Positions 1-40,377 of a stretch of DNA of 64,000 nt are shown one piece after another. This DNA comes from Blasia pusilla. Taxonomy: Eukaryota. A program made the translations under genes and the position numbers. Position 1 is the stretch's first letter. Each line of letters begins with the position of its first letter. The notes below the pieces were generated by a model. It was not told where the DNA came from and did not search any database. It saw only the letters and a program-made list of their open reading frames with translations. Location: contig CM114271.1 in NCBI GenBank assembly GCA_050084515.1, forward strand, positions 10,912,001-10,976,000. The letters are read 5' to 3'.

Positions 1-3000
1 GATCGCTTCACGCACTACAAGTTAGAGCTCATCCTCGCTTCTTCCAGTTAGAACCAGGAAACATCCCGTGTCACTAAGATATGCGTTGGCAAAGGAGAAC
101 ATCAACGCGATCTGGTCATATGTGAATGGGGTGTTTCAATCCGGGACTATGTCGCGTGGGTTTTCTGCCCACAAATCTGAGCCCCAACGGTAGATTTACG
201 ATGAGGAGGTCAACTACAACCTCCTCACGTACCCCATTGATGGTCCATGGGGCATGGCCGCCTCGCAGAAGCTTACATCCCAACAATGTTAGCTTCTCCA
301 AGGCAAGCGTGGACTCTTGTGATGAGAACTTCTCCAATTCTTCCAGCAACGATGTCTGATGCAGCAAGATGGTGATTTGTGATACTCCATCCTTGTGCTT
401 CCCCGACAATGAGGGAGTGTAGACAACATTCGTGTCCCCTCCTTCAGAGAAACCGGGAGTCTCCCTTTTTTGCTTCTTGCGAGTGGGGTGCCTGCTTGTT
501 GGGATCTCTATGACATCGAAATCCACAAGATTCGGTTTGGAGGCCTCCCGTAGCCGTCCTTCTCGCCTTGATGATCGTGCATTGCATGGTTTGGGGGCCT
601 TAACCTTGGATTTCAACCCCGCATTGGACTTGTCTTTTGTCGTTACTGTTTTTGACAAAATCTCCGCCGCCTCAATTGCTTGTGCCTCGGCATCCCCTTC
701 GAAGTACTCCTCTGTCTTGAAAATGTTTGGGATGTCCTCCTAGCCAACAGCTAGCGCATTATACAAGTCTCGCATTGCTGGGTCAGTGAGCTCATTGGGG
801 TCATTGAAGTCCAACTAGATTGGTCAGTTGAGCACTTCCCAAGGACTCATCTTGTGGGCCATCTCCATGTCATACATGGAGAATCCTTCACCATCCGGAG
901 TATCTGCCCATAGCTTGAGCGCCGCCCGAAACTTCCTCCATGTTCCTGCGTTCACACAGGAGGTCAAGAATCTGAACACCATCCTCTACGCAACTCGATG
1001 GTGGGATAAAACGACAGCTTGATCTTGATGCTCTTTCTTCTTTTTCGCGAAGTCCCGTTTCTTCGGCTCGACAATCTCCTCGTCGATATCCCCCTACGCT
1101 AGAATGTGGTTCTTGAACATCGTCTTGAACCCAGGATTCTTTGTCAACTTATCTCGGATGTCATTCAACCACAACTCAAACTCCTCCCCCGATTTGAGGC
1201 TAGCCTCCTCCGGAACCGGCTGAATTCTCTGCAGGTCGGCTTGAAGGCATTCAATCATTGACTTTCCCAGCAAGCGCAAGGCATCCCATAAGGACCACTC
1301 TCATAGCCATTGGGAGATGACTGGGTCCGACACCCCCGATGAATGGTGTGCCGATTTTTTCTTTGCCTCCGTTCCCTCTAGACTGATTTTCATCAGTCAC
1401 GTGTGTGGGGATCCTCGTCCCTCTTTCGCTGCCTCTTGATTATGGCCTTCAACTCTTTGTAGAAGTCGGGCCCGAGCTTGGGGTTGAGGACAGCGATGTA
1501 CTGCTGCATCTTCTTTGCAATGTACCTGGTCGACGCTGACACCACAACTTGAATGAACTTGGCTCTCTCAGAAGCCGAAACATTCCCTCTCTGCTCTAGC
1601 TCTAGTGTCGCGCTTCTTTTCGCCGCCTGGATTTTTGACCAGTTGAGTATTGTAACAACTGCATCTTGGGAAATGAATGTGTTGGCCCACGTCTTCTTTA
1701 TTTGCGCTCCTTTTGCGAGCATCTCATCCACCAACTCCTCTCCGAGGAATCCTTTGTTTTGCGACGGGTGTGTTGTAAGAACCTTCCTCACTTGGTCACA
1801 TTCCTGGATCCAGTGATGGGTAACATTCCCTTTGGACACAAAGCTGCAAACATCAAGGAGAAGTAAGAAAATTTACAACTTGCAACTTGTCAATTTTTTA
1901 CGGGTTGGAAGTAGACGAACAAAATGACAGCTATTGCCAACCCGTCAAAGTCCCACAGGATGCTCCAAGAGCTTTCTTGGTGCAATCCGTTGGAAACGGA
2001 CGGTTTGCATCCAGGTCCATCTAGGTTGGGTTGCAACCCATTGGAGTCCATCGGGTTGCACCTCGAGTAAAGTAAATTCAAAAATTCAATCCGTCGAAAA
2101 TTGACGGGTTGCAAAGCCACCCAGACCGGGTTTTAAGTTTGCATTGGGGTTCAGGATTCTGACGATAGTGTTTTCACTTGCAACTCGTCGGAGTCCGACG
2201 GGTTGCAAGAGTTCCTTGCTTGTGCAACCTGTCGGAGTCCGACGAGTTACACAAATTGGGAACTCAGAAAGCCGAGTTTGATTGATCTTGCAAACCACTC
2301 AAACCAAGCCCTTTCCTACCTCATCTACAACCCGTTGGACTCCGACGGGTTGCAAACCACTCAAACAAGGGTGTTTCCAACCGCATATGCAACCCGTCGA
2401 AGTCTGACAAGTTGAATGTTCTTTACGGAAGGTCTGGGTCTACATGGCTTTGCAATCCGTCGGAGCCCGACGGGTTGCATAGCAAACCCAAGCAAGAATC
2501 CTTCTGTAAAGATCATGCAACCCGTCGGAGTCCGACGGGTTGCATGATCGGCCACTCAAACCACGCCTCTCCTGAATCTCCAACCCGTCGGACTCCAACG
2601 GGTCGTAGGCTTGTTCTACAGGGATGGCCACACTTGAGATTGTGCAACCCGTTGGACTCCGACTGGTTGCCAGGAAACTCAATAGAGAGCCAAAAGGAAT
2701 TGCAAATATGCCATCAAATTCTTCCTCTTGCAACTCGTCGCCTTCCGACGGGTTGCAGCTATGGTTAACGATGACTTGATTCTTGAGTCCGACGCGTTGA
2801 AACCGGTTCATTTTCAGGAAGAAAAGATTTAGGATACTTACGTGTTCATGGAGTGCATGGAAATTTCCACCGTGGCCACGTGCTTTGGGTAGGGATGGAG
2901 GACCACCGCCCTCTTGTAGAAGTGGGCCTCAAGGGAGTTTGGACGCTCCGCTGCAAACTGCGACCATCCCTTAAATCGGTGGTTGCCATCCTAGATGAAA

Positions 3001-4100
3001 AAGTACAAGTTTTGTATCTACTTATAGTGGGTTCGTGCCATTGCCTTCCGGAACTCCACGTCCCTCAACCTCCAAAACGCATCAAGACTCTCCAGGTCTT
3101 CCTCCGTTACCAAAGCCTCGGTTCCATGCTCATCATACGGTTGAACATAGAAAGGTGGGAAGCTATCAACGTATGAAGTTGTTGCCACGGACTGCTTCAA
3201 CTTGTCGATGTCTTCCTCTGATTAGATTTCTCTGACGTATTCCATCGTTCAAAGTCGGAAAAGAGGAATCCTCGAGGCATTAGGGCCATCCACCAATGCC
3301 ATCTGCTTCACCACCTGCGCAAATGTCACACTATCAGTTCAAATTTTCCAAACGACTGGCACTAATACAATGCGGAGAGAAATGTAGAATAATGCTTACC
3401 TGCAATGAAGACCTCAAGAATGGCGGCTCACCCTACTTTCAAAATTGAATCTGTCATTGCAGGTTACTCACTGTCTTACAACTTTCCTATGCTCTTCTCG
3501 ATTATCTTATGGAATTCCAAAATCACAAGACTCAACCCTCATCCCTACTGTTGCCCAATAAGATGTTACACTCAACTCCACACATCAGAAAGCATGAGAA
3601 AAGACACTTCTAGTGCATCAAAGAGTGGAAAGACTAGAAAGTATTGCAAGCTTCAAAGAGTACAAGACTCTTCGGCTTGGATCATCCCCTAAGAACTCCT
3701 TACACAACTCACCAAGACTACTGGTAAAATCAAGATACCATTTCCATCTTTCAAAACCTCCGCGACGGTTCATTACCTATAGTCTTCGCGGTCTTCACAG
3801 TCCTATCTTCTCGATCCTATCTTTGCGATCCTATCTTCGCGGAGACTCTTATCCGAATGCGGTCGCAAAGAGTCCTCCTTCGACTTTCCTTCTTTCTGCT
3901 TTCTTCCAAAACATTTGTTCTCTTTGTATTCCTCTACTTCCTACACCTTTCCGCTTTTTGTGAAGACTCTTGAATTCCTCTTCTTCTTCCTCTTCCTTCT
4001 TAGAGTTCTTAATCTTTGCTCTTAGGTCTTCGGTCTTTGTACCCTGTCTTCGCACAAAGACTACCTTCAGTCTTCTTTTGCAAAGAAGCTTTTTCCAATC
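1..4100 (-). pseudogene. Copy 1 of the MULE cargo gene (ParB/Srx-like + N6/N4-MTase-like), a diverged subfamily, running off the window start
   Basis: Exon 2 is 3314-2842 (DGNHR at 2990-2976) and exon 3 runs from 1843 off the edge (VDLLIVNLPLGL at about 214-179). GT-AG introns at 3399-3315 and 2841-1844. Peptides are colinear with copies 2 and 3. Several in-frame stops. 3400-4100 is a charged, low-complexity probable exon 1 and is poorly supported. Confidence 0.8.
1935..2805. repeat. Array of about 14 copies of the 29-bp palindrome in intron 2 of copy 1
   Basis: Repeated GCAACCCGTCGGA-N-TCCGACGGGTTGC. A perfect 19-1-19 palindrome lies at 2511-2549. Confidence 0.95.
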
Positions 4101-4720
4101 TTCATCTGTCGGTTGATAGGTCGGTAATCTCCGCACATCCGCCCATCCGTCCAATTGCCATACATATCCTTCTTTGCCGACATGACTATGGCACATGCAT
4201 ACTCCACATGTGATAACTCCACAAGTCATGCCTCCAACAAGTTGTGACTCCTGCTCTGAACCAAGGCTCACTCCATGTCAAAATACTTGTAGGATCGACA
4301 AAAGATTGGGGTATCTCTAGCCAACTCAATCTGTATCGCGGGACCCTTCAACGTATCCAAGTCTCTCATATTGAAGGCAAAACAATTGACATGCCCTCTC
4401 AAAAACCTATGAACCGTCACTCTCCTCCTATCAACTTGAGACCTATCACAAGCTCCCAAGTCTCCATCGTGACCTCACTCGGAGAAGACGCAACCTCCGG
4501 CTATGTAGCAACCCAGCCACCTCCGCAAAAACCACTCCACTCTGACCTCCTACACCATGCTCCACATCCAAAAAATGAACATATGCTGCTCTGGCTGCCT
4601 TCGCACTCTCCGCTCGAACAACGTCCCATGAAGCCCATGGGTGCATATTTCTCCTCATTCCGCCCCCATCCAATACATGTACAGACCCTATAGGCAATGC
4701 TCCAACTCGTGGAAGTGACA
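4100..4720 (-). mobile_element. Ty3/gypsy pol fragment (linker and start of reverse transcriptase), probably the DNMT-carrying family
   Basis: Minus-strand translation FAFNMRDLDTLKGPAIQIELARDTPIF...SAKKDMYGNWTDGRMCGDYRPIN matches a gypsy RT N-terminus, with stops. Confidence 0.75.
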
Positions 4721-4722
4721 GC

Positions 4723-5042
4723 TATTGAAGATTGAGTTACAGTCAAGCTCTCGATATACCTGAACTGCTACATTTGCTACTTACATGAAGTAGGGAAGCT
4801 TAATCTTGGTTAGTCAGTTAAGCGTGATTATCTTAACTAGGGTTAGTTAATCACAGTTAGTCTAACTTGAGACTATGGTTAAGGTTAGGGTTAGGGTTTC
4901 TTGTACATATCCTATATAATTGAGAAGGGGACTAGCCTACACTCATTCTCTCATTGAAAATTTTGTTCTCCATGGTGGTGTGTGAGTATGAGAGCCGTTT
5001 CCCACCAAGTATGCTTCTTTAGCAGTTTTCCACATGGTATCA
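4723..5042 (+). mobile_element. Copia LTR (4723-5034) with a partial primer-binding site TGGTATCA (5035-5042)
   Basis: Reverse-complement match to the LTR at 36282-36593. Ends in CA and is followed directly by TGGTATCA. Confidence 0.85.
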
Positions 5043-5049
5043 CACTGAT

Positions 5050-6370
5050 AGGAGAACATCACTTGAAATTCTTGGTGTTTGAGGAGAGAAGAGTATCCAA
5101 TACCCGTATTTGACGTAGCAAATTCCGGAAGCATTCAGGATCAGCGAGAAATGCGAGATTTTCCCAGAGTTGTTTCTCCTCACCAACCGTGATCTCGCCC
5201 TGCCCAAGGATTCCCAGCATTTGTTCACAAATTTGTGATGTTGTTGTTAACTTGATCACTCCGGGCTTTGATCCCGGAGAGTTTCTATATATCTCGGCCA
5301 CTTTCTTTGCCACATCCTCCTTGATGTGTCTTTGAATTGCACCGGTAACATGATGAATGTGGGAGCCAACATGAACTTCCAGCCTTGTATACTCGGATGT
5401 AGACCTGAAGTCAAGCACAATAAAAAATATGTATGCAGGACACGCTCCAACGCAAAAAGGGGATGTCTGATAATGAGGACATTGATGGCCTTCCGGCGGT
5501 ATGGTCGCATCGACCTCATATGGAGTTTTTGCATTCTGAGGGCGGAATTGCAAAGTATTGACTGGCCCATTGCGCTCTAGATACAGGCATGTTGGACTTC
5601 TACACTCCATGGCTCCAACATATTAGCGGCGAGAAACAATCCAAGGACCATCTGGAATTGAAGCACTAGTCCGTCGAAGCCTGCACCATCGATGACAATC
5701 AGACTTTCTGTCCATACCCTTCAAGCGTCCTCCATCTTTCTTTTGAGCAGGACCAGCAAGTGGAGGCAAATTAAGAAATGAAATTACCATCGTACGTGGG
5801 CGGAAGCTCATCCACAAGAATATGCTTGAACATTTTAAAGGCCAGAGACGAGAACAAACTATTGCCTGATACTTGCAAGAGGAACGAGTAGGTAGATAGA
5901 GGACCCGGTTGGTGTCCGACAGTTCCATTGAGGTTGACGACATCCGGAATGTCTTCAGAAAGTACAACATTGTTACGAATGTGTGAAGTTGGAGTTGATG
6001 CCGGATCTAATAAGCTCGGAGTTGCAAACATAGAGCTCGGTGCACTAGGAAATTCTCGACCATCTACTTGGGAAACAGAGGAATTCAGAGGCAAGCCGGA
6101 AACTCTATATTGACCATTTGCTAGAGGTAGGAGATTCCATACTTTATGGTATGCAATCAATGGCTGGATTTTCTCACCTATTATGTCCTCCATACCGTTC
6201 ATCCTAACATCCTTAGACACAAAGATGGTTCCAATTTGGAGAAGAAATTGAACTGAAAGAAAAATTTCATCCACTGGTATGAAAGACTCACAAGCTTGTG
6301 GTCAAACTATTTCTGATTGAGGAAGGGCCGCTAGATGATTGCCATAAGTGAGCTTCACATAATTATCCAT
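5050..6370 (-). pseudogene. MULE transposase N-terminal part (Cys/His zinc-finger DNA-binding region), truncated
   Basis: MDNYVKLT start near 6370. ECRSPTCLY...CPHY...C...HVGSHIH is colinear with 58650-59900. Frameshifts and stops present. Confidence 0.8.
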
Positions 6371-6399
6371 TCCCAAATGATTCCACCGGGTGGAGAATG

Positions 6400-6920
6400 A
6401 GAATAAGAATAAGAATGAGAATGAGAATATTTAATTTGTGGTGAATAGTGACCGTTATTCTCCTGACAAAATTTGATTAACAAGATGTTGTTTGGTAGGT
6501 GAGATTTTCTAACGAAATGGATTCAATCCTGTTGCAACATGTCGGAGTCCGACGGGTTCCAAATTTTGGGACTCAGACACGTGGATTGCAAAGCCACCTT
6601 TTGTAAGAGTTCGAGTGCAACTTGCAACCCGTTGGGTTGGTACCCCCCGCCTAAGATTAAGAAAAAGAATGAGAATGAGAATGTTTAATTTATAGTGAAT
6701 AGTGACTCAGATTCTCTTGACATAATTTGACTCACAAGATGCTGTTTGGTAGGTGAGATTGTCTAACGGAATGGATTCAATCCTGTTGGAACCTGTCAGA
6801 GTCCGATGGGTTGCAGAATTTGGGAATCAGACACGTGGGTTGCGAAGCTCGGAGTTCCATTTTCTGTTAGTGTCCCAATGCGAGTTGCAACCTGTCAGAC
6901 TCTGTTGGGTTGGTACCCCC
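6400..6920. repeat. About 255-bp tandem duplication upstream of the transposase start, each unit with GAGAAT repeats and palindromes
   Basis: 6412-6650 aligns with 6666-6920. Confidence 0.8.
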
Positions 6921-7139
6921 TTCTTGTCTGACCAATATGATTTGAGTCGAGATTGCTAGCATCAAACACGAGACGTCGCATGGATTTGCTACGGCAACCT
7001 GTTGGGGACTGTTATGGAATCCAAAGGAACCTAACCTTGCTTTCCCTTTTGCATCTCGCATTGATTTCTCTTATTCAATTAACTGTGCAAACCGTGAGTG
7101 CAGTTTTGTCGTATGTTGGGAAGTGTCCAACTTCGGGTA

Positions 7140-7720
7140 GACCTTGTAACCCGTCAGAGGGCAACGGGTTGCCTCGGAACTATGCTTTGTCGCATTGTTA
7201 CCCGAGGGAGAGAAAAGCCTGCAACCTGTCGGTATCCAATGGGTTTCCCGGGTACCTCTCCTTGTAACCCCAAGATGAGGGAAGCGTGCAACCCGTCAAC
7301 CTCCGACGGGTTGCACGGATACCTCGCCTTGGAACGCCAACATGAAGGAAGCGTGCAACCCATCGGCCTCCAACGGGTTGCGCGGGTATCTCGCCTTGTT
7401 ATCCCAAGACGAGGGAAGCGTGCAACCCCCTGGTCTCCGACGGGTTGCGCGGGTACCTCGGATTTTTATCCCAAGACGAGGGAAGCGTGCAACCCCCCGG
7501 TCTCCGACGGGTTGCGCGGGTACCTCGCGTTGTTACCCCAAGATAGGGGAGGCGTGCAACCTGTCGATCTCCGACAGATTGCCAGGGTAGCTCGGCTTGT
7601 TACCCGAGGAGGACGAATGCGTGCAACCCATGGGTCTCGGAGAAGTTTCATGGGCAACTCGCCTGCATCCCCAAGCCGCGGGAAGTGTGCAACCCATCGA
7701 AGACCGTCGGGTTGGCCGGG
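7140..7720. repeat. 67-bp tandem repeat built around the 29-bp palindrome (intergenic region of copy 2)
   Basis: Palindrome centres at 7301, 7368, 7435, 7502 and 7569, with similar linkers. Confidence 0.9.
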
Positions 7721-7806
7721 TTCCCACGTCCAAAGTTCCATAACGGTCGAAACATCGCCGTCGATACGACAGTGCGACCCAACGGTCAGCTCAACGGCTC
7801 AAAAAG

Positions 7807-7814
7807 TATAAATA
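7807..7814 (+). promoter_or_regulatory. Putative TATA box of the cargo gene
   Basis: TATAAATA about 300 bp upstream of ATG 8111, conserved in copy 3 at 57648-57655 on the minus strand. Confidence 0.55.
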
Positions 7815-7999
7815 GCCAATATTTCGCTCATTTCCATTTTTTGTTTCACGATTTTATGTGCTCTTGAGCGCAGCAGCTGACCACATACCAAGGGGAGTGA
7901 GGAGGGTGAGGGCGCTTCATCACGAAACCGTCACGGTAGTCTAGGGTCACGTCGATTCATCGCGAGACCATTTGGGGGAATTTTTGTGCACGGTCTAGG

Positions 8000-8077
8000 G
8001 TCTCTTTCTCTGCACACGAATTCCCTCGAATGGTCTCGCGAGACCATTCGAGGGAATTTTTGTGCAGAGAAAGAGAC
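8000..8077. repeat. 78-bp spacer-less palindrome in the putative 5' UTR
   Basis: 39-bp arms centred on TCGCGA, with 2 mismatches. Confidence 0.9.
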
Positions 8078-9337
8078 TAGACTGTCGAGGAGGAAGCATT
8101 AACGGGAACCATGACAAGGAAAAAAACGCAAGCAAGCAAGGTAGGGAGCATCACTCCCAAGTCCATGAGGACTCCTGCGTCACCATCTCCAGGGCCTCGT
8201 TTGGCCAATGAGATAAGGCAACAAGAGATAGAGGAGCGGGAAAGGGAAGCAAATATGCACAGGCGGGAGCTTCTTGCAAAACATGTTTTGGAGGCGCTCG
8301 AAAAACAAAATGCCAAGGCTGAGGCATCGTAGGCCTTGAAGAAAAGAGTTGCCGACGAGAAACGTGAGAAAAAGCGTTTGGACGCGTACGTGAGGAGAGC
8401 AGAATTGGAAAAATCTCGAAGGGAAAAAGCGATTGCCATTGAAGACAGCCCTGCCCATCCAACAGAGAGTGTTGAGATCCAGGAAATATCCCCAATGAAG
8501 TCTGGGGACACCACGAATAGAAAATCGGCTGAGGAAACGGCCGAAGTTCAAGTCACGGATGATGAGGTCATGAGGACGGCAAGCGTGGAGATGGTGGACA
8601 TCTCTGAAGAAGCAGGAGAAAAATCTTCCTCGTCTTTGAGCCTGGCCGAAGAAATCGCCTTTATCGGCTCGATGAGTTTCTATTGGACTTGCCAACTGCT
8701 GTCCCAGAGCAGTTGGCGGGCCAAGACACCGACCCAATCTTTGAGCGGGTAAGAAATGTTTGAGTTATGTGAAGGTCCATGATGCAATTCATTGGCAAAA
8801 CAGTGTAGTTTATTGACTTGGTCCCCATTGTGGCAAGTTGTTAAGCAGATGGCACTGATGGAGGGCCAAAATGCCCCGAGAATTTCACTTTTCCAATTGC
8901 GGACAATGGAGTACGTCCGCGAAATTCAATCGGAGGAGGATATTGCAAAGCTGAAACAGTCAGAAGCGACAGCATCCTACGTTGATAGCTTCCCTCCGTT
9001 CTATGTTCAGCCTTACAATGAACATGGAACCCAAGCGCTGGTGACGGAAGAGGACTTGGAAGCGCTCGATACATTCTGGAGGATGAGAGATCAGGAGTTC
9101 AGAAGAGCGATTGAGGGGACGCAATGTAGCTGGATGCGGAACCTTTACTTCTTCATATGGGATGGAAACCACAATTACATGGCATGGACCCAGTTTGCAG
9201 AGGAATGCCCAAATTTATTTGAGGCGCATTTTTGCATTAAGGCAGTCGTGCTCCATCCATTTCCTCATCACATGGCAACGGTGGAAATGGCAATGATGTC
9301 ATGAATACGTAAGTTTCCTCTTCCTTAATTTTGATTG

Positions 9338-10040
9338 CTTCAACCTGTCGATGTCAAACCGGTTGCATAATTGGAAAGCTTCAACCAAACCGTCAAAGTC
9401 CAACGGGTTGCCTCATGGCCAAGCACACCAGAGAAAACTGGGATACCGAAACCAGTCCACCATCGACGGATGTAAAAATGAGTGCATGATGTATATGTTC
9501 TGCAAACCGTCGGACTCGACGAGTTGTTAAACTAGTGGTTACAAATCATCGGATGCCTTAAAGCAACTCGTCGGAGTCCGACGAGTTGCTAGAGTGTCGG
9601 CTATTTTTGGGATGTTTTTGGCCGAAAGCAACTCGTCAGACTACGACGGGTTGCATTTGCCCCCACGGGTAGGTGGTCGGAGTAGGAGAGCTTGCTTTTA
9701 GGCATCCAATTCCAACTTTACAAAAAATTGCGCAACCTGTCGGACTCCGACGAGTTGATATGTGCAGTTTTTTTCCAGAAACCAGTCTCCGAATGGAAAT
9801 CATCTTACAACCCGTTGGAGTCCAATGGGTTGTAACTAGACAATCACAAATCCAAGTGCAATCCGTCGGACTCCGATGTGTTGCACTTATCGCTAAAAAT
9901 TTGCGTGAGTGTTGCAATAAGTGTAGCAGAAAAAAAAGTGTTGCGACCCATCAGACCTCGACGGTTGCAATATTTTTCTCTGTGCTACTATTTCGACCAC
10001 TAGGTGTTGCGACCAGTCGGAGTCCAACGGGTTGCAAGAA
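9338..10040. repeat. Palindrome array in intron 2 of copy 2
   Basis: Degenerate units centred at 9515, 9576, 9641, 9745, 9820, 9871, 9956, 10022 and others. Confidence 0.9.
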
Positions 10041-12147
10041 CCTTGTAGCTTGCAATAATTCTTAGCGTGTGTTTGGATGTGGAGGATTGTATGTGAGGGG
10101 AACGTCACCCACCACTGGATCCAGGATTGCGAGAGGGTGAAAAGGGTGCTTACGATGCACCCGGCAGAGTACAAAGGGTTCTTGGGCGATGCTCTAGTAA
10201 ATGAGATGCTGGCGAAGGGGGCTCAAATTAAAAAGAAGCCTTGGGAAAATACCTTCATTTCCCAAGATGCAACCGTCATAATCCTTTGTTGGTCGAAGAT
10301 CTAGGCCGCCAAGAAGAGCGCTTCATTGGAACTGGAGCGAAGGGAGAACGTGTCTACGTCTGAACGTGCAAAGTTCATCCAGGCTGTAGTATCTGCAGCT
10401 ACAAAGTACACTGCAAGCAAGATGCAGCGCTACATTGCCATTCTGAACCCGGAACTTGGTCTGGAATTCTACAAGGAGCTCAAGGCAATAATCAAGCGCC
10501 AGCGGAAGAGAGACGAAGATCCATAGGGTCGGATCCGTGAGAAAGTGTCTCTGGACCGCGTTCACGGATTTGCACTGTCTGGAATTTTCGAGTTTAGGAG
10601 AATCCGATTGATGAAAATCAGTCTCGAGGACACAGAGGCCCAAAAGAGGGTGGCGCACCATCCTCCGAGAGTTTCTGATCTAGTGATCTCCCATTGGCTA
10701 CGTGACTAGTCATTCTGGGACGCGTTGCGGCTTCTCGAGAAGTCCATGCTTGTGGGTCTTCAAGTGGAGCTGAAGAAGATACAGCCAGTTTCGGAGGAAG
10801 CAAACCTCAAGAGTGCAAAAGATTTTGAACTATGTCTTGATGACATCCGAGACAAGCCCACGAAAAACTCAGGCTTTAGGATGATGTTCAAGAATCACAT
10901 CCTCCCTTAGGCAGACATGGATGAAGAAATTGAGGCCAAAAAAAGGGATTTTGCAAAGAAGAAGCGGGATCTTCAGGAGCAGGCGGCCGATTCATCTCGA
11001 CAAAGAGCTACCCAACGGATGGTGTACAGGTACCTCATCAATTGTAAGAATGCAGGTACCTGGCGAAAAATATCGGCAACCTGCAAATTGTGGGCTTCTC
11101 TGCCTGAGGGAGAGGCATTTTCCATGTACGACATGGAGATGGCATAGGGCATGTCCGACTGGGAGGTTGACAATTGCCCTATCTGGTTGGACTTCAACGA
11201 CCCTGAGGACATTACAGAAAAGAATCTACGCTTGGTGTATGATGCAGTGGTCGCAAGTAGGGACGACATTCCAAATTTCGTGCAGCCTGAAGATTTTTTT
11301 GAAGCAAATGCGGAGGAGCAAGCCCTCGAGAAAGCGGAGTTGGTGTCCAAGGTAGTCACCGCCAAGGACAAATCTACAACGGGTCTGAAAGCAAAGGCGA
11401 GGGGATCGAAGAATTCCGAAGCCGACTCTTCTAGAAAAGACATTGAGACCTCAAGGCGAGAGGCAGAATCATTCGGGCGAGTGGGGCGAGAGGGCCGGAC
11501 CAGGTCCTCCGCCAAGAAAACTCCAGTGGAGTCTGAGGTAACAGAGACCCCCACAAGCCAACCGCAGACTCGGGAGAAGCGAAAGCGGGAGGCGCCTGGT
11601 TTGTCCCAAGGAACAGATAAGGATGTGGAATACACTCCATCATCCTTGGGAAGACATAGAGAAACAACGACCAGGACAAATGTCCTCATTCACTTCACGA
11701 ATCTTGTGGATGAGCTGCAAAGTTTCAGTTCCTAGGAGTCGACACCCGCCATTGACAAATTGACCATGCTGGGACGAAAACTTCAACGAAACGGGCACGC
11801 TCCCTGAACGGTCCATGGGGTGGTCCAAGAGGTGGCGGTGGATCTCCTCATCGCAGATTTGCCCTCTGGGTTTCGCTTGTGGGACAAAAATTCGTCTGAC
11901 ACTGTCCCGGAATTGAATGTCCCTCTTTCCTACGACCAGATCGCGCTCTTGTTTTCTTTTGCAGACGCTTATGTGAGTGACAAGGGTTGTTTCTTGGTCT
12001 TGACTGGATGGAGCGAGGATGAGCTCTTCAACCTTCAGTGCATGAAGAGGTCGTTGAAGTGGAGGACAGCGCAATCATGGGTCATCAAGAACAAGTATCC
12101 AATCCGATCGGCGACGAGTCAAGTCCGGGTAAGTGCTCTTAATCCAA

Positions 12148-12492
12148 ATTCAACCCGTCAGGCTCCGACGGGTTGCATCTCTGCATGCAACCCGTCGGAT
12201 CCCAACAGCTTATGGCTGCGGTGTTGCAATCCGTTTGAAAGCGACGGGTTGCAAATTTACCACAAGTCTCCATTGAGTAAGTGCAACCCGTTGGAATCCG
12301 ATGGGTTGCAAGTACTTGTGCTTTTCCTTGTGTTTCTAGAGTGATGCAACCTGTCAGAAAGCAACGTGTTGCTCTTAGCCAACCATGGGTTGCTCTAAGC
12401 CAACAACCTGTCGGCCTCCGACGGGTTGCTCATGGCAAAAACAAAACAATTACACTTGTAAAACAACCCGTCAGACTCCGATAGGTTGCTCT
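12148..12492. repeat. Palindrome array in intron 3 of copy 2
   Basis: About 7 degenerate CAACCCGTCGG...CCGACGGGTTG units between GT at 12129 and AG at 12652. Confidence 0.85.
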
Positions 12493-13103
12493 ACTATTAG
12501 GACTTTAGGCCAAGTTCTTATGGGTTGGTAATCAACAGGGACTAGAATGCACTATGGACGTGTTGCTCATTGTGTCACCATATTGAACGTAGACCAGCGG
12601 TCAAGTAGCTCTTTCTTTTTGGTGACATTGTTTCCAACCTACTTATTTACAGATGGACCACTCCTTTGTTTACTATTTTGTAAGGCCCGAGCACAACTTC
12701 CAGGTGTTCTAGATCTTGGATCCAGTCGATCCATGCTCCGATGGGTATAGCTTAGATAGTTTATACAATTCCCCCCCCCTCGGGGAATTTACATGCAAGA
12801 CAGAACCCCCTTACTTGGAGGAAAGGAAAAGTCCCGTGGCTTGATGCAAACGCTCATCGAGCTCTGTTCAAGGCCGGGTGACTTGATGTTCGACTTAGTG
12901 GGCCTATCAAGGGCGAGTATTAGAGGCGCCTGGCAGAGTGGCAGGAACATTCTCTGCCTTGAGGGAAGGCAAGAACTTTATGACCTTTGCAAAGAGGCAA
13001 AGGCAGATTACGACAGGCTAGTTGGGGAATACAACTCTCCTCCAAAGCCGAGAGCCCCGGTTCCAGACCCACCATTGGTAGTGACACCATCGTCACTTCC
13101 CAC

Positions 13104-14932
13104 ATTTGCAGTTCAATTTTGCATTGAAATCCCTCACATAAGCACTTAGGGACCCAGTCAATCGCAGCCGCATGTGCTCAACTATATCCCAAACCACTTG
13201 GTGCTCTGGAGTGAATCGGTCACCAATCAAAACCTTAAACTCTTCCCAACTCAAAAGTGAACCTCCGGCCATATGTTATTTTCACTGAGTTGTCCACCAT
13301 TGTAGGGCATGATCCCTTAGGAAGGTGATTGCCACTGTCACCTTATCCTGCTTCGCTGCCCTCTACGCCTCGAAGTAGAGTTCCAATTCCGTGAGGAAAT
13401 CCTTTACCTTTTGAGAACGTCCCACTCCAATGAATGGCATGGGCAGGTTCATCTTGTAGAGCTTTTTGCCGGAACTCGAAGCTCGGTCGGACTCAAGCTC
13501 TGCAATCCGCTTGCTTTGTTGAGATATTTGCTCCGTAATCAACTTCATTAAGTCCATCATTTGGGCATAGACTGCCAGGTCACTTGAGTTTTGAGCCGAT
13601 GGTCCCACGAAAGGGTTTGCATTCGGGACCCCCTCATATCTGGCATTTAACACCTCAGGAGTCAGCATCTCTTCCACCGGCTCCTAATCCGGTATCGGTT
13701 TGTCTTTCGGTTCACGTCACTTGATTTGGCATTTCCGTGGTTCATCTCCCTTGGTCGCCATCTTCAAGCTGCCTCAATCTGATCTCCTCCTTGTTTCTTG
13801 CGTCCCTCCCCCAGCGTCTAGGCCTCGCCGCTACCTTGGGTTTCCCCCAAGCATCCGGTTGCTCCCACGACCCCAAGTTCTTGCTCACCAAGGATTAGCT
13901 CTGATACCACATGTCTTGTGCCTACTTCCCTTGAACGTCAATCTTAGAGTTGCAGAAGCGTATGTTCAATAGGACATGCTCTCATCGCCGACTTGCATCC
14001 AAACACACTCACGTTAGCTTGGTTTGGGTCAAGCGGCCTTCCAACCCACTGAGTCCTCGGCTTGGCACCTCATCAAGGTCAACCTTCCCTCACTCCTTGG
14101 TTCCCAACACAAGCAAGTCTTATGAGACTTGGGACAGACTTTCTCATTAGTCTAGACATCTAAAATGGTGTTTGCGCACCTAGCAGTCCCAACTATCAAA
14201 TGGACCTAGCATGAGCCCCCTAACCAAGACTCACCAAGTGAGTTGCGGGTTGGAGTCCAATAGGGAACTTGGAAATCCATTGGGCTTGGTTTGGGTTTCG
14301 GATCCCAACGCCAAAACTCTTGATCCATTTCGTGCCCTTGAGTCACCCCGCAGAACCCAAAATGGGGTTTGAGTCCCAAACACCCTCAAAGACCTTCCCC
14401 CTTACTAGTATTTCTAGGGATTACCAGCCTCCCCCTACCTTTGGGGAAGGGACACCCGGGGCCCTCTTTTTGGCCCTCAACCCGACTTCCTCTACAGTTG
14501 CTTTTGGCCCACATCTTAGCCTTTTCTTGATCGTTTGCCAAGATCTTTGGTGTGCTGGAACCAAGTTTGCATAAGATTTCCAACACCACCTTACTTGTCT
14601 CAAACGCATCTCATGACTAAAAGTTATGGTTGAAAGTACAGTAAAAAACTCCAAATGCTAGCAGCATCTCAAGTCCGATTCTCACCCCTTGGCCACGTCT
14701 CCTTCGAGACTCGACTTTTCTTGAGTCAGGGTTCCACATTTGGTTTTGGTTTCCTTAGTCGTGACCATAAATGCATGAAACACTCAAAATGCTCGCCTCG
14801 CTTGCGTATTGCACTCGTGTTTCCTAACTTTTCTCTTCTTGAGACCCCTCCAAAGCGCAAACCATCCTAGCGATAGACCACTCAAAATTGGATGTTATGT
14901 TTGGCACTCATTTGGTTATGAGGATCGCGACA
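13104..14932 (-). mobile_element. Chromovirus-family gypsy fragment: 5' LTR (13912-14932), tRNA-Met PBS (13898-13909), truncated gag
   Basis: TG...CA LTR similar to 45052-46053. PBS reads TGGTATCAGAGC on minus. Gag peptide QSKRIAELE...KVKDFLTELELYFEA. Confidence 0.9.
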
Positions 14933-16089
14933 GCCAGGGCGTAGATCCAAGAGTTGCGGCACGTGCGATCGATGGCAGGAAGCGACTAGACAGGCCGGAC
15001 GGATCGACAGACTCTCACAAAGGGCCGGCTGCAACACGGCAAGGGCCCCTTCTGTGAGGGTCGGCAACCAAGAGCTCCGGCTCACCTAGAGCCACATGTA
15101 GAGTAGCCAAACTAAGCAAGGCTTTGACTGAAGAAGTGTTGGTCATGCAACAAAGGGGTCACGGCTTAGGCAGATGTTGGAAACCTCAGGTGCAATGCTG
15201 CGGTGGCAAATAAGTAGGCCTTACGGTTGCAGTCGCAGTAGCAACGGCGATTGCATCAACGCAGGTGCGGTAGTCTCGGACAAGGAGACGCCGCAGAAGA
15301 TCAAGTAGGGTCAACGGTAGCACAGCAGTCACAGGACTATGTTAGGATCAGGGAATGTGGTAGTAACGCGGATGGAGCGGCGGCCAGGGCACTACGTCGG
15401 TTGGCCAACAACATCCCATCCCCTAAAAATCTGGTTGAGGCAGTGGTCGCGGCGTCTGGGAAGCATCAAAGGTAACAACTGCAGGAACGACATCAGATGT
15501 GTTGGTGGTAGTGGGCACGGCAACTACGGAGGCTGAGAGAATGCGATTGTCAATAGGCGGCAACATAGTAACCAACGTCCGTCAGTCAAACGGGTCAAAG
15601 GAACAGCTGACCACGGTCATACAGCCCAGCGCATGGTAGGGCGCGTTTAGCTAAATTGACCCCCTACAAATCCGGGTCAGGCCTATTTTGATTAACTTGA
15701 TTGTCGCCTTTTGAAATTGTTGTAATTTGAGTGCTTCTCCACAAATCCCTCCTAGAATTGAGGGTCAACTCTCACTCTCTCTCAGAGGTATACCTCCTTC
15801 AATACCCTCTCCAAAGCTCTCTCCATGATAACCTATGCTCGTAGGTCACCTCCTTGGCTCTTGACCTGTTGTAGCAGGTCAAGAGTCACTTCCCAAAATG
15901 GAAAGTAAACTATACCAAAAACAATCATTTACCTGAAATAGGAAGTTCCTCAATATGGTTCCAAATGAACCGAAACGAAGGGGAAACCTGCTCTCTCAGG
16001 CTACTCGTGCCCTCAACATGTCATCCTTGACCTCTTAAGACTGTCATCCAATATCTCCAAAGGCGCTCTACTATATCTCATCAATCTAT

Positions 16090-24624: not shown

Positions 24625-24678
<54 letters not shown>
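24625..24678. repeat. (GA)27 microsatellite
   Basis: Direct read. Confidence 0.98.
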
Positions 24679-24685
<7 letters not shown>

Positions 24686-24798
24686 CTTGGGAGCTCATTC
24701 TCTCTTTGTTGAACCTCTTGGCATGAGGCGGTGGAGTTATGGTCCTCTTTGCCTTGTGTCTGTAACTCAAGCCTATCATTAGAAGAATGGGTTTGGTT

Positions 24799-24990
<192 letters not shown>

Positions 24991-25613: not shown

Positions 25614-28600
25614 TGTCACATTTGAGAAGCCGATAGGCCGAGATCTATCGTGGATAGGGCATAGGATCCAGCGGACTGTCTTGAGTGTAACTTTGTCCTG
25701 GAGTGTCGGATGAGGTTGAGGATAGGTCCGTTGTGTCAAGAATGTCGTTTTTGACAACTTTCTTGTAGAGGTCTTTCACAGCCGGATGACTTGTTGAGCA
25801 GGTCACCTGCCCTTGGTAACCTGTGCGTGCAGGTTGCTAGAAGGATAGTTATTTTTAGGGGAAGAGCCTTTTGGCTCTTCCCATCCCTATATAAGGGAGG
25901 AAGATGGCTTTCCCAAGCCACCTTTCTCATGTTGGGTCGTTGGAGTACCATTCTTGCTCGTGTGTGTGAGTTAGGATTAGGTGCTAGCGTATGGATTACT
26001 TGATAGCATATGGTGGACGAGGCTCGATATGCCGATGTAGATTGAGGAGTGGAGTTTTAGGCCGGGTGTGCCGTTTTTACTTCTCTTTACATGAGAAAGA
26101 TGTTAGGGGGCTGGTGGGAATTCGTTGTTTGCAGGTAGGCAAGCGAGTTGCCTTGGTGGGTAGCGCTAGAGACACTGGTTGGCATTTTGTTGTCGTTTTG
26201 TTGTTCGAAAGGCCATGCGCGGAAGCGCTGTCCATTTTTCTTTGATTTCTGTATTGTAAGTTGAGGGACAGTGGCTAGGCATAGCGTAGAGTGGGGCGGC
26301 AAGTGTATTGATGAGAGTAACTAGAGAAGGAGGAGAGAAGTGTGAAACATGACTTGCAGCCACCAGGGGGTTGTCAAGTAAAGGCGGCCAGGCTAGGACG
26401 TAGCCGCCTAGGGCTAGGTTAGGTCAAAGACGGAAGAAGGCAGGGCGCGGCACAGTATGTCGGGAGCCTAGGGTTGAGAGTCAGAGTCAGGCCCGAGAGC
26501 CTGGGAGGTAGCGAGGCCAAAGCATAGGGCGGCAAGCCGTGGGCCTTGGCCGAGCACCCCCCCCCCTCCTTTTCCGGACGTAGTCGGCGTCTTCCTCAGG
26601 ATGTAGTAGGCGCCCAATCTAGTCGGCATCTAGACGTGGTAAGGGCAGACATGGTAGGTCGGGCTGACATGGTAGGCAAGGTGGATGTGGTAGAGCGAGG
26701 GACTGAGATGTGGTTGAGGTGAGTTATGTAGTGGGAGAGCGTTGTTGAGACTTGGTGTTTCACGAGCATGGTGGGATTCGCGACGAGAGTTGGGCAGTTA
26801 TTACAAGTCGATTGGGGATCGACGCAGTAGTTCTTCATCGAGTATGGGTGCGAGGGTTGTGATAGAGACACACATACCGATGCTGATGGGAGGTTTAACG
26901 TGTTGGTCGAAGAGAGTGTCGTGTTGCGGAGGTTGCCGCACCATATGGAGGAGTGCGTGTTGACAGTGCCGTAGGTTGGAGGGCATGATCAAGTTACCCA
27001 TTCAAGTCCCTTTTCACTCACTTATCTTATGTGATTGAGAGTGCTGGGTATCGGGTAGTTGCTGGGCTAGATGGGTGTAGCAATGGTGTTGAGTGTAGTC
27101 TCCATGCATGTGTAGCATGTTTATGGATATACGACAGTTGCCGAGTAGGGATCACGTGTATGACCCGAGAGTGTCGGTAGTTTAAGTGAGTTAGTTGGGA
27201 GGCTCATGGTGAGCTTGAGTGTTGAATGTGCATGAGGCCCGGTGTGTTGTCACGAGATTACCATTAGCGTAGGTGAGCTAGTGAGGAATGTGGGAGACTC
27301 TTGGTGAGTCTGAGTGCTTGAGCGGGTAAGACAGGGTTGTTATCACGGTGTTCTTCGTGGGTTCGAAAGAACGGGGTAGCGCGAGCAGTAGTAGTGGTGT
27401 GACAGAGAGTGGAGTGAGATATCAAGGGGTTACGAGTGAGGAGCTACCTCGACTTCCATCCGTGGCTAGATTGTCATCATTGGACAGTGGGTATGGTGAC
27501 CAGATCTCAGACGAAGGCAGTGTCACTTGGCAAGAGATGGACAACATGGGCCATCGGGGCATGCGTCGTTTCTCGGGTGTAGTGGGCACCATCAACTTAG
27601 ATGACTTCATCTAGGAGTTCGTCACGTGGTGTGATTTCCAGGAGATACAGACCTCGACACGGTTCAACTCTTTCATGGCATGGAAGGGGTTGTTCCATCA
27701 CTTGGAGGGTCCTCCAATGGATGATTACATGGAGTTTTGATCGCTATATTCAATAGAGATTGATGCATGGAGGATGTATTGGGCTCTAAGATATGTGTGC
27801 ACTAGTGGTGGCGAGGTATATGATGGTATCGTGAGAGGAGAAAGACCCACACCATCAGCCCAGAGACTAAATGGAGAGGAGCGCAGTGAGACAGGCAATG
27901 TGGCAGAGACCTTTGGTGGTCGAGGCCCACCCAACTTCAGTTCCACAGTGGAGTTCTTCTGACAGTTAGGGAACATCCACCAAGGCGTACGCATCGACAA
28001 GCCGAGGAGTCTACATGATTTTCAGCGACGATTGGGTGAGAGTTTGAGAAAGGTATTCACGCGCATGGGGAGGCTGATCATTGCTACTTATGGAGTGACT
28101 GAGGCGTAGTCAATCCAGTATTGGTAGGGGGTTCTTGACTGAGAACTACATAGGAGAGTCTGAGATGTAGTGTTGATTCACACGGCGAAGCCCACATTGA
28201 AGGTGGTCTTCGAGTTATCTGAGCATATTGAGCTCAACATGATTGAAGATCAGGTAGTGACCATTGGATTTTCTTGAGAGTCGACGGGTCCATGCGCGAC
28301 GGTGATCCCACAGGTGCCACAGCGAGCACTAGTACCATGGGAGTGGGCCAGTGTGCCAAGAGAGCAGGGCGGGTACCGTGAGCCTATGAGGCAACGATCC
28401 ATGCCTACATATGTTGCCTAGCATGGACCGATGTTGTCTTGTTGGACGTGTGGAGGGGCCCATAGGTAGAGAGACTGCCCATAGCATGGGAGAGGACCAC
28501 GAGCGCCTCCGATTGTTCACGAGCCACAAGAGGATGGCCCCACCACAATATCACTGTGACTATTGCCACAGATATGATCACACTAGGGATAGATGTTTTG

Positions 28601-28983
28601 ACCTTCATCGAGAGGCACACCCAAAGGTAGGCTGAGGGACTAGGGGCAATTGTCGAGGAGGAGGTCAAGGAGTTCTTGCTAGACGTGGTGGTAGAGGACC
28701 ACCACTTGCCAAAGGAGATAGAGCAACGCTTCTCTCGGGCATCAATCAGTTGGAGCAGAGGATTGTTGTCATGATGATGATGCAGCTCAAGGAAGGCAGA
28801 GAGCCGAGAGTAGCTAGTGTGGTTCCAACTTCCACCTCTTACCATCACCCAAGTGAGGATCGTGCTAGTATGGGGTTTATGTGTAGTGCAGCTCCTATTG
28901 AGGCTACTGCGGTGGTGACTCGGGATGTTGCGAGAGGCACTGAGCTTTCGAGAGGTGAAGTTGAGATTGATCCACCGGAGGGG
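25614..28983 (+). mobile_element. DNMT-carrying gypsy element, 5' part: LTR/leader and decayed gag with zinc knuckle
   Basis: TGTCACA start. Leader similar to the reverse complement of 63200-64000 and 32000-32600. Gag motifs TESGVRY, FSGVVGTINLDDFI, CDYCHRYDHTRDRCFDLH. Confidence 0.8.
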
Positions 28984-31900
28984 TATGGTGTGCATACACA
29001 TTGCTATACAACCCACATCGCTGGTCACATCTACATACCACACAACACCAATCTTTCCGAACATACGGTAGATCCACACATAAATGAAACATACTCACGC
29101 ATATACAATGGGACCGCACAACCATCCCCTAGCTGGGAGTTGGATCCTAACTCCAAATAGCACTCACATATGTACTTGATAAGATCTCTTATCTATCCTA
29201 TACACATCTAGCACCATCGGTGTCGTCATCCCCGCAACACTCCCTTACTATAGCAACCCGCCGTGTTGATCCCTCCAAAGAGATCTGACACTCTCATACC
29301 CCGCTCCAACATAGGCACGGCTCTATGCGTGCCTCATGAGCTCATCTGCAGTCCACGCATCTCAACGCTTGTCTCCAACAACAATTAACCAACCCTGCAC
29401 CATGGGAAGAGACATCCATCCTGGCATGTCTCTCCGTGGGACTATCCGCTACGGAAATGTCCTCTGCATGTGTGCTCATGTTCCCAAACCCTCATGATCA
29501 GCTAACACCACCTATGAATATTGCCAACGTGGTCACCATATCCTCACGTGGTCGACCACCACTACTCCCTGCAAACAACATCGGTAGATGGCTCACCCAT
29601 CCATCACCTGATGGCTACCCTGGCCGATAAGAAATTGTCTCCTCCCAAAAATCCAGAATGAAACCTAGAGGATACAACATCGTATTCCCTACCAATACAT
29701 CATACAACTCTGCCGATGTTGTAATTTCCCGGGTGCGCACCACCGCACTTTCTCTCTCATGCTCTAGTTGGAGTCTAATCACTAACTCATGCCGGGTCAT
29801 GATCTGCGTGGATGATACGCCCCCAATAGAGGTCTGTATCTGAAAGGGGCAACGCTTGATGTTGCCTTTCCATAATCCCAACGCCAAACGCGCCGCCTTC
29901 CCTAATATCAAGGGCTGCGCTCCCAAATCAAGTAGGACGCGCTGCGGGTGGTACACCTATGGGACTAACCAAGCAAAACACTCTTGCTCGGTTATCCCAC
30001 AACACCACACCTTGTGTGATCATGGCTTGCTCAATGGCCGGTGAAGCTGGCATGTCTACCACCTTCGCCGCCACCGCATGCCATGACTTAGTGGGGGACG
30101 TCTCAAGCTCCTGCTCTAAGGGCAAGTCCACCACCTCCTCAACTATCTTTGAATGAGAGGCAATCACCTCTCCATGCTGACATAACGTGGCGGCCAGCCG
30201 GAACACCTCCGCTGGTCCAACTCTTAACGTCGCCAACTTCATGGCGGAAAACAACGGAGCGTGGGTTACCCTAGTGGCCACCTCCAACAACATGGTCGAC
30301 ACTGGGTCCTCCCCAACCGGCATAGGAGTCATCTCTCCAACTCCTTATGACACTGAAGCAAATGTCCCACCTGTGGGTACTACCGGTTGTCGAGGCACCA
30401 TCGACGGTGTATGTAGTGCCTTCGACAATGTGAACAACTAGGAAACCCTGGCTTACCGCTAATCAGTTCCCTCCTGTGGGTCAATCTCAACCCCACCTCT
30501 TGATGGCTCGGTTACTCTCGCAGCACCCCGAGTCACCACCGCAGCAGCCTCAACTTGAGCCGCACTACACATAAATCCCATCCCCGCAGAATCCTCACCA
30601 GCATCGTGGTACGATGTGGAGGCTGGCACCACACTAGCTACTCTTAACTCTGGGCCTGCCTATAGCTGTATCATCGTCATGGCAGCAATCCTTTGCTCCA
30701 ACAGATCAATGCGTGTAAGGAGCATTGCATTGGGTGCACGTCCTCCATCTCCTCTGACTGGTGATGGCATTCTTCCACCACGATCACCCACCACTCGATC
30801 TCCACCAACTCTCTCGCCCCCAAGTCCTCTACCTACCTCTGGACATACCTCATGGCAAAGATCGTAACACCTATCCCCAGTGTGACCATATTGGTGACAA
30901 TGATCACACTGCAACTGTGGTGGGGCCGTCCTCTATGCTCCTAAGCAATTAGAGGCATGAGTGGCCCTCTCCCATGCTGTGGGCAGTCCCTCTGCCCATG
31001 TGACCCACCACATGTCCAACAATCCAACCATGGTCCCTGTTGGGAAACATATGTCGGTACAGGCCGTTGCCTCGTCGGCTCACGATACTCAACCTGCTCT
31101 CTAGGCCCACCGGCCTGCTCCTGTGGTATTGGTGCATGCGGGGATACATGTGGGTCTACTCCTACTCGTCAACCCATCGAATCCCGTGAAAATCCCGTGG
31201 TCACCACATGCTCCTCACTCATGTTGAGCTCTACCCGCTCAGAAAACTTGAAGACCACCTTCAATGTGGGCTTCGCCATGTGAAGCAACATTGCATACCA
31301 AATTCTCCTTCGTAGCTCCTCATCCAGCACCCCGTACCAATACTGCACTAACTATGCCTCATTCATCCCATATGTGGCAATGATCAGTATTCGCATGTTC
31401 GTGAATGCCTCCCTCAGATTCTCACTCAATCTCCGCTGAAAATCCTGTAGACTCTTCAGCTTGTCGGTCCGCACACCTTGATACCTCCTCCCCAATTGTC
31501 AGAAGAACTCCACTGTAGGACTAAAACTCGGTGGTCCTCTACCATGAGAAGTCTTTGCCACCTCACCACTCTCACTGCCATCCTCTCCATCTAGTCCCCG
31601 GGCTGATGGTGAAGGTCTTTCCGCTCTCACTATCCCATCATACGCCTAGCGGCCACTAGTGGACACATACCCTGGATCCCAACACACCCTCCAGACATCG
31701 ATCTCTATAGAGTATAGAGATCAGAATTCCATGTAGTCATCCATCGGTGGACCCTCCAAGAGGTGGAACAACCCCTTCCATGCCATAAAAGGGTTGAACC
31801 GCGTAGGGGTCCGTTTCTCTTGGAAGTCGCACCATGTGTCGAACTCCTAGATGAAATTGTCAAGATCTATGATGCCTACCGCACCCGAGAAATGATGTAT

Positions 31901-40330: not shown

Positions 40331-40377
40331 TACTCCCAAACAAACGTATGTGCTTCGCTTGTGTACCAAAAGCTCAT

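Follow-up and report, generated by a model that had tools for sequence, protein, structure and literature searches.

The window, a stretch of 64,000 nucleotides of contig CM114271.1 in the Blasia pusilla assembly GCA_050084515.1 (positions 10,912,001 to 10,976,000 of the forward strand), contains three decayed copies, here called A, B, and C, of a gene whose intact relatives join a ParB/sulfiredoxin (ParB/Srx)-type domain to a DNA-methyltransferase-like domain. The former is encoded by exon 2, which a first-pass annotation of the same DNA had placed at 8838-9308 with two further copies in the window; the peptide quoted there lies in the open reading frame (ORF) 8783-9304(+). The limits of this exon in copy B coincide with an AG acceptor and a GTAAGT donor, the latter of which is kept in 3/3 copies. 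A tblastn comparison of the copy-B exon-2 peptide with the window recovered copy A at 3317-2850(-) (110/156 residues identical, E 5e-73) and copy C at 56707-56201(-) (87/175 identical, E 7e-45), which confirms the annotated exons, and the likeness of the three is far beyond chance. Each copy is part of a larger unit that is repeated three times in the window: copy A(-) reaches to ~3318 and is truncated by the window start, copy B(+) spans ~5102-13103, and copy C(-) spans ~59903-52156. Nucleotide identity among the three copies is 67-76% across coding regions and ~84% in two flanking blocks, and tblastn matches of the long relatives P0023, P0015, and P0088 span the entire window gene. The DGNHN and DGNHR motifs that had been annotated in exon 2 were found on translation at exactly the positions given for them. 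The recognizable parts of the gene are listed below.

8111-8749, + strand: exon 1 of copy B, coding for a basic low-complexity N-terminus (comparison with copy C)
8838-9308, + strand: exon 2 of copy B, a putative ParB/Srx-fold domain of ~156 amino acids (aa), open but damaged (ORF, model, fold matches)
9161-9175, + strand: DGNHN, the copy-B version of the family motif DGNHR (translation)
2850-3317, - strand: exon 2 of copy A, 71% aa identity to copy B (tblastn)
2976-2990, - strand: DGNHR of copy A (translation)
56201-56656, - strand: exon 2 of copy C (tblastn)
56321-56335, - strand: DGNHR of copy C (translation)
10086-12127, + strand, limits approximate: large exon of copy B with the conserved middle and a methylase motif-IV-like stretch (tblastn, translation)
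11856-11870, + strand: DLPSG, methylase motif-IV-like, copy B (translation)
12817-13095, + strand: copy-B exon that matches the Riccia relatives in their methylase motif-I region, its G-x-G being degenerate (tblastn with P0088 residues 1035-1125, E 1.4e-5)

All three window copies are pseudogenes. Exon 2 of copy A contains 4 in-frame stops, and that of copy C shows 7 indel events relative to A and B. Copy B carries a 1-bp deletion 13 bases before the donor, because of which its exon 2 ends in AMMS-stop, where copies A and C read AMHAMN and the family AMHxxN. Near-invariant family residues are substituted in copy B as well: S for P (60/65 rows of the alignment described below), F for C (59/65), L for W (74/78), and N for R (69/76 rows); since the F and L changes are common to copy A, they may be features of a subfamily and not decay. 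Exon 1 of copy B is interrupted by a stop in frame at 8330-8332 and, compared with copy C, changes frame near 8665, and 7 internal stops are met when 10059-12344 is read in a single frame. The region is thus a graveyard of three dead copies in which the system is extinct, and nothing of it acts here today.

Relatives of exon 2 were collected in a HMMER scan of 1.84 billion representative proteins, which gave 87 at E<=1e-3, 12 at <=1e-10, and 0 at <=1e-30 (best E 5.6e-18; identities ~23-44%). The window peptide and 77/87 relatives form a 78-row alignment, from which short or partial sequences were left out (P0048, P0058, P0065, P0068, P0070, P0074, P0075, P0078, P0081, and P0085). Folding of exon 2 from the single sequence yielded an unusable model with a predicted local distance difference test (pLDDT) score of 40.6; AlphaFold2 with the 78-row alignment reached a pLDDT of 90.5 and a predicted template modeling (pTM) score of 0.85. 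When the latter model was compared with 48,161 representative chains by VIA-align, 15 chains scored at Z>=2, and 13/15 of these are ParB/Srx-type (the top 11 and two more). Six of them are recognizable by title (ParB, KorB, PadC, Spo0J, pNOB8 ParB-N, and sulfiredoxin), with KorB at Z 7.7 (root-mean-square deviation, rmsd, 2.2; 88 aligned residues), PadC at 7.2, and Arabidopsis Srx at 7.0 (89 aligned). Another five (a serine kinase, SbnI, Atu1540, SspE, and a Dnd-related chain) are presumably of the ParB/Srx type, and among the structures named here and below we take SerK, SbnI, 1vk1, 2hwj, SspE, and 9jfl to belong to the ParB/Srx superfamily. The GmrSD-type BrxU and Osa are termed ParB-like in a published paper (PMC5512222). 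The two unrelated chains rank last, with Z 2.5 and 2.1.

Rescoring of Foldseek's 381 best chains gave 52 at Z>=5, and all 31 rescored matches listed are ParB, Noc, KorB, PadC, Srx, serine kinase, SbnI, 1vk1, or 2hwj, the best being Caulobacter ParB (Z 8.4, rmsd 2.5 Å, 95 aligned). The Foldseek lists for the PDB and the viral BFVD are likewise mostly ParB-type, with probabilities up to 0.99-1.00 and E values of only ~1e-2, and among the BFVD entries is a phage 'DNA methylase' that has a ParB domain. About 95/156 exon-2 residues superpose on ParB-type structures. The rest is a family-specific helical insert of ~40 residues (model residues 60-100, window ~9011-9133; helices 72-77 and 80-93) in which a Trp is invariant (78/78) and a Phe nearly so (77/78) and which is without counterpart in the matched ParB or Srx structures.

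Two stretches of the domain are conserved throughout the family. In the N-terminal I-P-L-C-R-L...V-R stretch, P is kept in 60/65, L in 62/65, and R in 63/73 rows; in D-G-N-H-R, the counts are D 68/78, G 74/78, N 78/78, H 75/78, and R 69/76. The model places DGNHR where strand 106-110 ends and helix 112-124 begins. For the superfamily, a pocket Arg in a G-x-x-R motif at such a strand-to-helix turn is described in PMC5512222. The position of DGNHR equals that of this pocket Arg, with R in copies A and C and N in copy B. Because the best structural matches are ParB/Srx proteins, with no unrelated superfamily on top, and DGNHR is conserved across the family, the assignment of exon 2 to the ParB/Srx type stands at fold level, where the predicted model supports it.

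The intact relatives are ~900-1250 aa long (P0023, 1191 aa; P0015, 901 aa; P0088, 1244 aa). They begin with a basic, disordered N-terminus, which is followed by the ParB/Srx domain, a helical middle that is conserved, a charged linker, and finally a DNA-methyltransferase-like domain of the N6/N4 type. The two-domain architecture, ParB-like plus methylase-like, is seen directly in P0088 and P0103, which carry both domains in one polypeptide, and the window exons match both parts. The C-terminal part is matched by PHROG DNA-methyltransferase families (E down to 1.6e-6), and in the ESM Atlas PF01555 occurs in 24/30 of the nearest clusters (score 0.94). An hhalign comparison of 11 C-terminal segments with bacterial ParB-methylases gave P 0.0088 over 74 columns in the register of motif I, with controls at 0.51 and 0.79. 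The motif I that binds S-adenosylmethionine (SAM) reads D-F-x-G-G-W-G-A-[ST] in 5/17 proteins; most of the others end before it, and it is degenerate in copy B. For the middle region between both domains, which is conserved, no match was found in Pfam or among PDB sequences. Judged by its sequences, the protein family lies outside the coverage of Pfam.

The gene copies are accompanied by a 27-bp palindrome, GCAACCCGTCGGAnTCCGACGGGTTGC, of which the window contains 70 copies at <=5 mismatches, 33 of them within 1-13,000 and 37 within 51,001-63,000. The interval 13,001-51,000 contains no copy, nor did any of 20 shuffled versions of the window. The arrays are confined to the gene copies, where they occupy the promoter and two introns.

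7146-7715: palindrome array upstream of copy-B exon 1, with a period of 67 bp
9385-10035: palindrome copies in the copy-B intron following exon 2
12150-12489: palindrome copies in the copy-B intron that precedes the motif-I exon
55457-56167: palindrome array with a 64/128-bp period, in the copy-C intron following exon 2
57744-58051: palindrome array with a 137-bp period, upstream of copy C

Only 6/70 copies are perfect palindromes, and the deviations, which are concentrated as C-to-T or G-to-A changes at the four CpG positions, comprise 172 one-sided cells vs 11 compensated ones. We take this pattern as a sign that the palindromes are decaying, possibly following methylation of cytosines. A 35-bp tandem repeat at 60770-60920 (4.3 copies, 96% matches) is also built of palindrome half-sites; it lies inside the 3' part of the ORF 59827-61203, whose end is therefore probably read-through repeat DNA and not coding.

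The distribution of the relatives and the neighborhood of copy C bear on how the gene has spread. Among 20 relatives that were looked up, 7 are from the liverwort Riccia sorocarpa and 1 is from the fern Adiantum nelumboides. A search for longer homologues with the exon-2 alignment returned P0023 only, and a search with P0023 in turn returned 31 proteins, all R. sorocarpa paralogues on several large contigs; overall, dozens of full and truncated paralogues are found on many large contigs of this species. Mutator-like elements (MULEs) are marked by terminal inverted repeats, a 9-bp target duplication, and a transposase that bears a SWIM finger. Beside copy C, one ORF has features of such a transposase:

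59827-60720, + strand: ORF divergent from copy C with MULE/ZSWIM-like features, a possible transposase remnant, given as a lead (ESM Atlas)

The clusters closest to it in the ESM Atlas are MULE/ZSWIM (score 0.93), although no more than 146 features are shared; the relatives of this ORF show 43-47% identity and include two from the liverwort Calypogeia fissa. At 62419-62730(+), a SWIM finger is weakly matched (E 0.028, under the cut-off). A Mutator-like carrier would thus be a lead only. The run of gene-like ORFs opposite copy C includes 58590-59689(+), 59827-60720(+), and 62419-62730(+) and may be the remnant of the carrier's transposase. Upstream of the ParB-like gene, 5102-6532 and 58491-59903 form the most strongly conserved block that B and C have in common (84% identity across 1.4 kb), which overlaps these opposite-strand ORFs and is cut short in B by an unrelated repeat (4723-5033, 92% identical to 36283-36593).

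We consider it fairly probable (roughly 60%) that exon 2 is the N-terminal ParB/Srx domain of a multicopy, mobile-element-borne accessory gene of non-seed land plants that combines a ParB-like with a methylase-like part, and that intact relatives of the protein would recognize the palindromes of their own element, which would mark or shield itself in this way. In the intact relatives, the GNHR pocket would bind a nucleotide or phosphate, and the protein, as a dimer or via another DNA-binding part, would recognize the palindromes of its own element in the manner of ParB on parS. The methylase-like domain would thereby be brought to the element DNA, so that the element would mark or shield itself. 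A more far-reaching version holds that DNA transposons of non-seed land plants carry a module derived from phage or plasmid ParB-methylases, which recognizes their own parS-like promoter and intron palindromes and either writes N6-methyladenine or N4-methylcytosine or forms a ParB-like nucleoprotein domain, labeling or shielding the element from host silencing; as a whole, this is rather doubtful.

By analogy, the gene looks like the same kind of gene as those of the accessory proteins recently described in algal DNA transposons. According to PMC12477816, the transposon Sola1-1_Ec32 of Ectocarpus encodes an accessory protein of 1104 aa with a ParB-like and a methylase domain, which is predicted to produce N4-methylcytosine or N6-methyladenine and is transcribed opposite to the transposase. 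Shared with the Blasia gene are the large ParB-like plus methylase protein and the placement of the MULE-like ORF on the strand opposite copy C; unlike the protein of this brown-algal Sola1 element, with which it is compared by description only, the Blasia family escapes ParB_N and has a non-canonical motif IV. A preprint on red-algal Plavaka transposons (bioRxiv 10.1101/2025.02.11.637652) describes PAG3, a protein with a ParB-like N-terminus and a 2-oxoglutarate (2OG) oxygenase whose gene is adjoined by tandem inverted-repeat arrays, and its authors propose self-binding and self-modification of the element. The ParB-like N-terminal domain and the repeat arrays beside the gene are common to both systems, whereas the partner of PAG3, which belongs to a Plavaka/EnSpm-type element, is a 2OG-dependent oxygenase, the partner here is methylase-like, and the arrays here also occur within introns. 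A third line is given in the accessible text of PMC4738411, where eukaryotic adenine-methylase clades from phage ParB-terminase loci include a chlorophyte/chytrid clade with a fused helix-turn-helix (HTH) of the ParB type; the clade list in that text contains no land-plant clade.

It is rare for a transposon to encode a protein that binds its own element and marks it chemically. In the literature that was found, accessory proteins with a ParB-like and a methylase or oxygenase part are known from algae only, and their function is predicted; a literature search, which did not reach the supplements of the algal papers, returned no land-plant report of a ParB-like plus methylase accessory protein. 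New here are the land-plant lineage and the named relatives in Riccia sorocarpa and Adiantum nelumboides. The 27-bp palindrome is a concrete candidate binding site, and with an intact relative it makes the idea of self-binding and self-marking directly testable.

A number of observations weigh against the reading of exon 2 as the ParB/Srx domain of a self-marking element protein, most of them at the sequence level. Pfam returned 0 families for exon 2 at E<=10 and none for 7 relatives at E<=1; ParB_N (PF02195) was found in 0/78 alignment members at E<=1, and the stray Pfam matches in the 78 members were DUF1015 (4), DndB (2), and DUF6551 (1), all with E >0.005. Profile-profile comparisons with hhalign used 35 canonical ParB ORFs and 16 ParB_N ORFs with a DPPY-type motif, the ParB-methylases, as references. 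Against the ParB-methylases, the family scored 21.3 (P 0.036) over 37 columns on the I-P-L...R motif, and against canonical ParB 12.1 (P 0.49), with GNHR opposite GERR; the negative control, DnaB, gave 13.5 (P 0.38). Only a post hoc step, the removal of the insert (residues 62-100), improved the match with the ParB-methylases to P 0.0072 (score 24.7, 59 columns over both motifs, HHalign probability 5%), with DnaB at P 0.27 (score 14.0). The positive control, canonical ParB against the ParB-methylases, gave P 2e-11 (score 92.1, 97% probability). The register of the profiles therefore agrees with the ParB type and their significance is weak: the sequence profiles concur in register and are alone not significant, so that the domain assignment rests on the fold. 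The ParB/Srx-like domain of the first-pass annotation is accordingly upheld at fold level and finds no such backing at the level of sequence. Structural Z scores of 7-8.4, for their part, are rated middling by the alignment tool. The C-terminal half adds to this. For Pfam N6_N4_Mtase (PF01555), P0103 narrowly missed the cut-off of 26.7 with 25.9 bits (E 1.1e-5), P0088 had 19.9 bits (7.8e-4), P0106 had 13.2 bits (0.087), and P0098 had no match; only the last quarter of the model was matched. Motif IV reads D-[LMV]-P-[STF]-G in 17/17 family proteins showing the motif and not (D/N/S)PP(Y/F/W); the aromatic residue is kept by the fern protein alone (DVPFG), and the window reads DLPSG. Because of this non-canonical motif, the methylase-like domain may be inactive or have another substrate. 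A DNA-binding domain or HTH was not identified, and a search of the whole-protein profile against PDB sequences returned no relative. Since the deviations of the palindromes are mostly one-sided, there is also no sign of ongoing selection for symmetry in the window. Elsewhere in these searches, phmmer of exon 2 against PDB sequences gave nothing relevant; ribosomal eL24 (E 0.036), the sole match of the PDB sequence and profile searches, was taken as chance, and a Pfam ParB_N search of the phage P1 record gave no match.

The middling Z scores, the best Foldseek E of only 1e-2, and the want of a significant sequence or profile match are what might be expected if the ParB/Srx resemblance were merely a common small alpha/beta arrangement arrived at without common descent and the domain were something else. 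We regard this as very improbable, as the matches are specific: 13/15 chains at Z>=2 among 48,161 are ParB/Srx-type, and the other two score lowest. Furthermore, two conserved motifs stand at topologically equivalent places, the best local alignments of hhalign fall on the same motifs, and the C-terminal partner is a frequent fusion partner of ParB domains in bacteria. Among 20 divergent ParB_N ORFs fetched from Pseudomonadota genomes (loci L117-L136, ~445-600 aa), 16 also carry a DPPY-type motif, and ParB-methylase fusions are therefore common in these bacteria; some of these genomes hold several near-identical copies. Like bacterial and phage ParB-methylases such as Bce_0392, the plant family has the ParB/Srx domain first and the N6/N4-type methylase second, with hhalign registers as expected. 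The bacterial proteins measure ~445-490 aa, with DPPY and no long linker, while the plant proteins are 2-3x longer, with D-x-P-[ST]-G and the ~40-residue insert, and the statistics of direct homology are weak (P 0.007-0.04).

The mobile nature of the gene has its own counterarguments, which could be accommodated by an expanded family of host genes, with window copies that would have arisen by ordinary tandem or segmental duplication. Where the blocks common to B and C end, neither terminal inverted repeats nor other element termini were found, nor were target-site duplications; the transposase-like neighbor is present beside copy C only, and its nature as a transposase is weakly supported, as no Pfam MULE domain was found in ORF 59827-60720 or in 5 of its relatives. 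Such a host family is nonetheless highly unlikely, because the three copies lie in both orientations, are 67-76% identical in coding regions, and have all decayed, each is embedded in the same palindrome arrays, the paralogues of Riccia sorocarpa number in the dozens on many large contigs, and the 1.4-kb block that B and C share upstream extends into the region of the MULE-like gene. The plant transposon protein proposed by the first-pass annotation thus remains plausible for a repeated, decayed gene that is multicopy in a liverwort and adjoins a MULE-like ORF, with the element ends as the missing part.

Two further explanations share the ParB/Srx assignment and differ from the self-marking accessory protein in what the domain does. 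The first-pass annotation had suggested a nucleotide switch or clamp, in which a nucleoside triphosphate (NTP) would drive the closing of the protein into a DNA clamp in the style of the cytidine triphosphate (CTP)-dependent ParB, Noc, and KorB, with loading at the palindromes and sliding or spreading over the element. The N-domains of these CTP-binding proteins are indeed the best structural matches (Z 7.7-8.4), the Gly, His, and Arg of the pocket are conserved, and the arrayed palindromic sites resemble the parS clusters that such clamps bind. However, the GERRxR box II of CTP clamps was not found in the family: GNHR replaces GERR, with an invariant Asn (78/78) where the hhalign register puts Glu, and the Glu of GERR is the hydrolytic residue in ParB clamps. 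A methylase-like domain takes the place of the ParB-type C-terminal dimerization domain, an HTH was not identified with the whole-protein profile among PDB sequences, and neither of these parts nor the ParA partner of ParB, Noc, and KorB was found in the plant family. The fold match does not single out CTP clamps either, because sulfiredoxin and serine-kinase structures, which use adenosine triphosphate (ATP), lie within ~1-2 Z units of ParB. Sulfiredoxin shares the fold, and its pocket motif, of the G-x-H-R type, is closer in form to GNHR than GERR is; unlike the plant family, it is a small single-domain ATP-dependent peroxiredoxin reductase, and the position of its catalytic Cys is Asn in the plant proteins. 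A clamp is therefore possible and not favored, and we would call it unlikely. The domain might instead be an NTP-regulated nicking nuclease that aids the movement or replication of the element, for instance through nicks made at the palindromes or close to them; the methylase-like part would then be secondary. The family keeps the Arg, His, and Asp of the pocket, and PMC5512222 reports that the ParB domain of the Bacillus cereus ParB-methylase Bce_0392 nicks DNA and that Osa and GmrS have DNase/NTPase activity. The nicking reported there is sequence-nonspecific, which would leave a tight tie to one palindrome unexplained, and a nuclease role thus seems improbable as well.

Outside of the three gene copies, the window consists largely of nested repeats. 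Three long ORFs at 40049-44866(-) (343, 336, and 652 aa) appear by eye to belong to a Ty3/gypsy-type retrotransposon, with a gag containing a CCHC knuckle, a protease, a reverse transcriptase containing YIDDIL, and an integrase tail that ends in a chromodomain-like part. Other repeat families with 72-82% identity, unrelated to the ParB-like gene, pair 13113-14933 with 44260-46054, 26881-28982 with 30469-32592 (inverted), and 25620-26397 with 63212-64000, and one of these pairs flanks the gypsy-like region. Two dinucleotide microsatellites, (GA) of ~30 units and (GT) of ~90 units, are located at 24625-24981.

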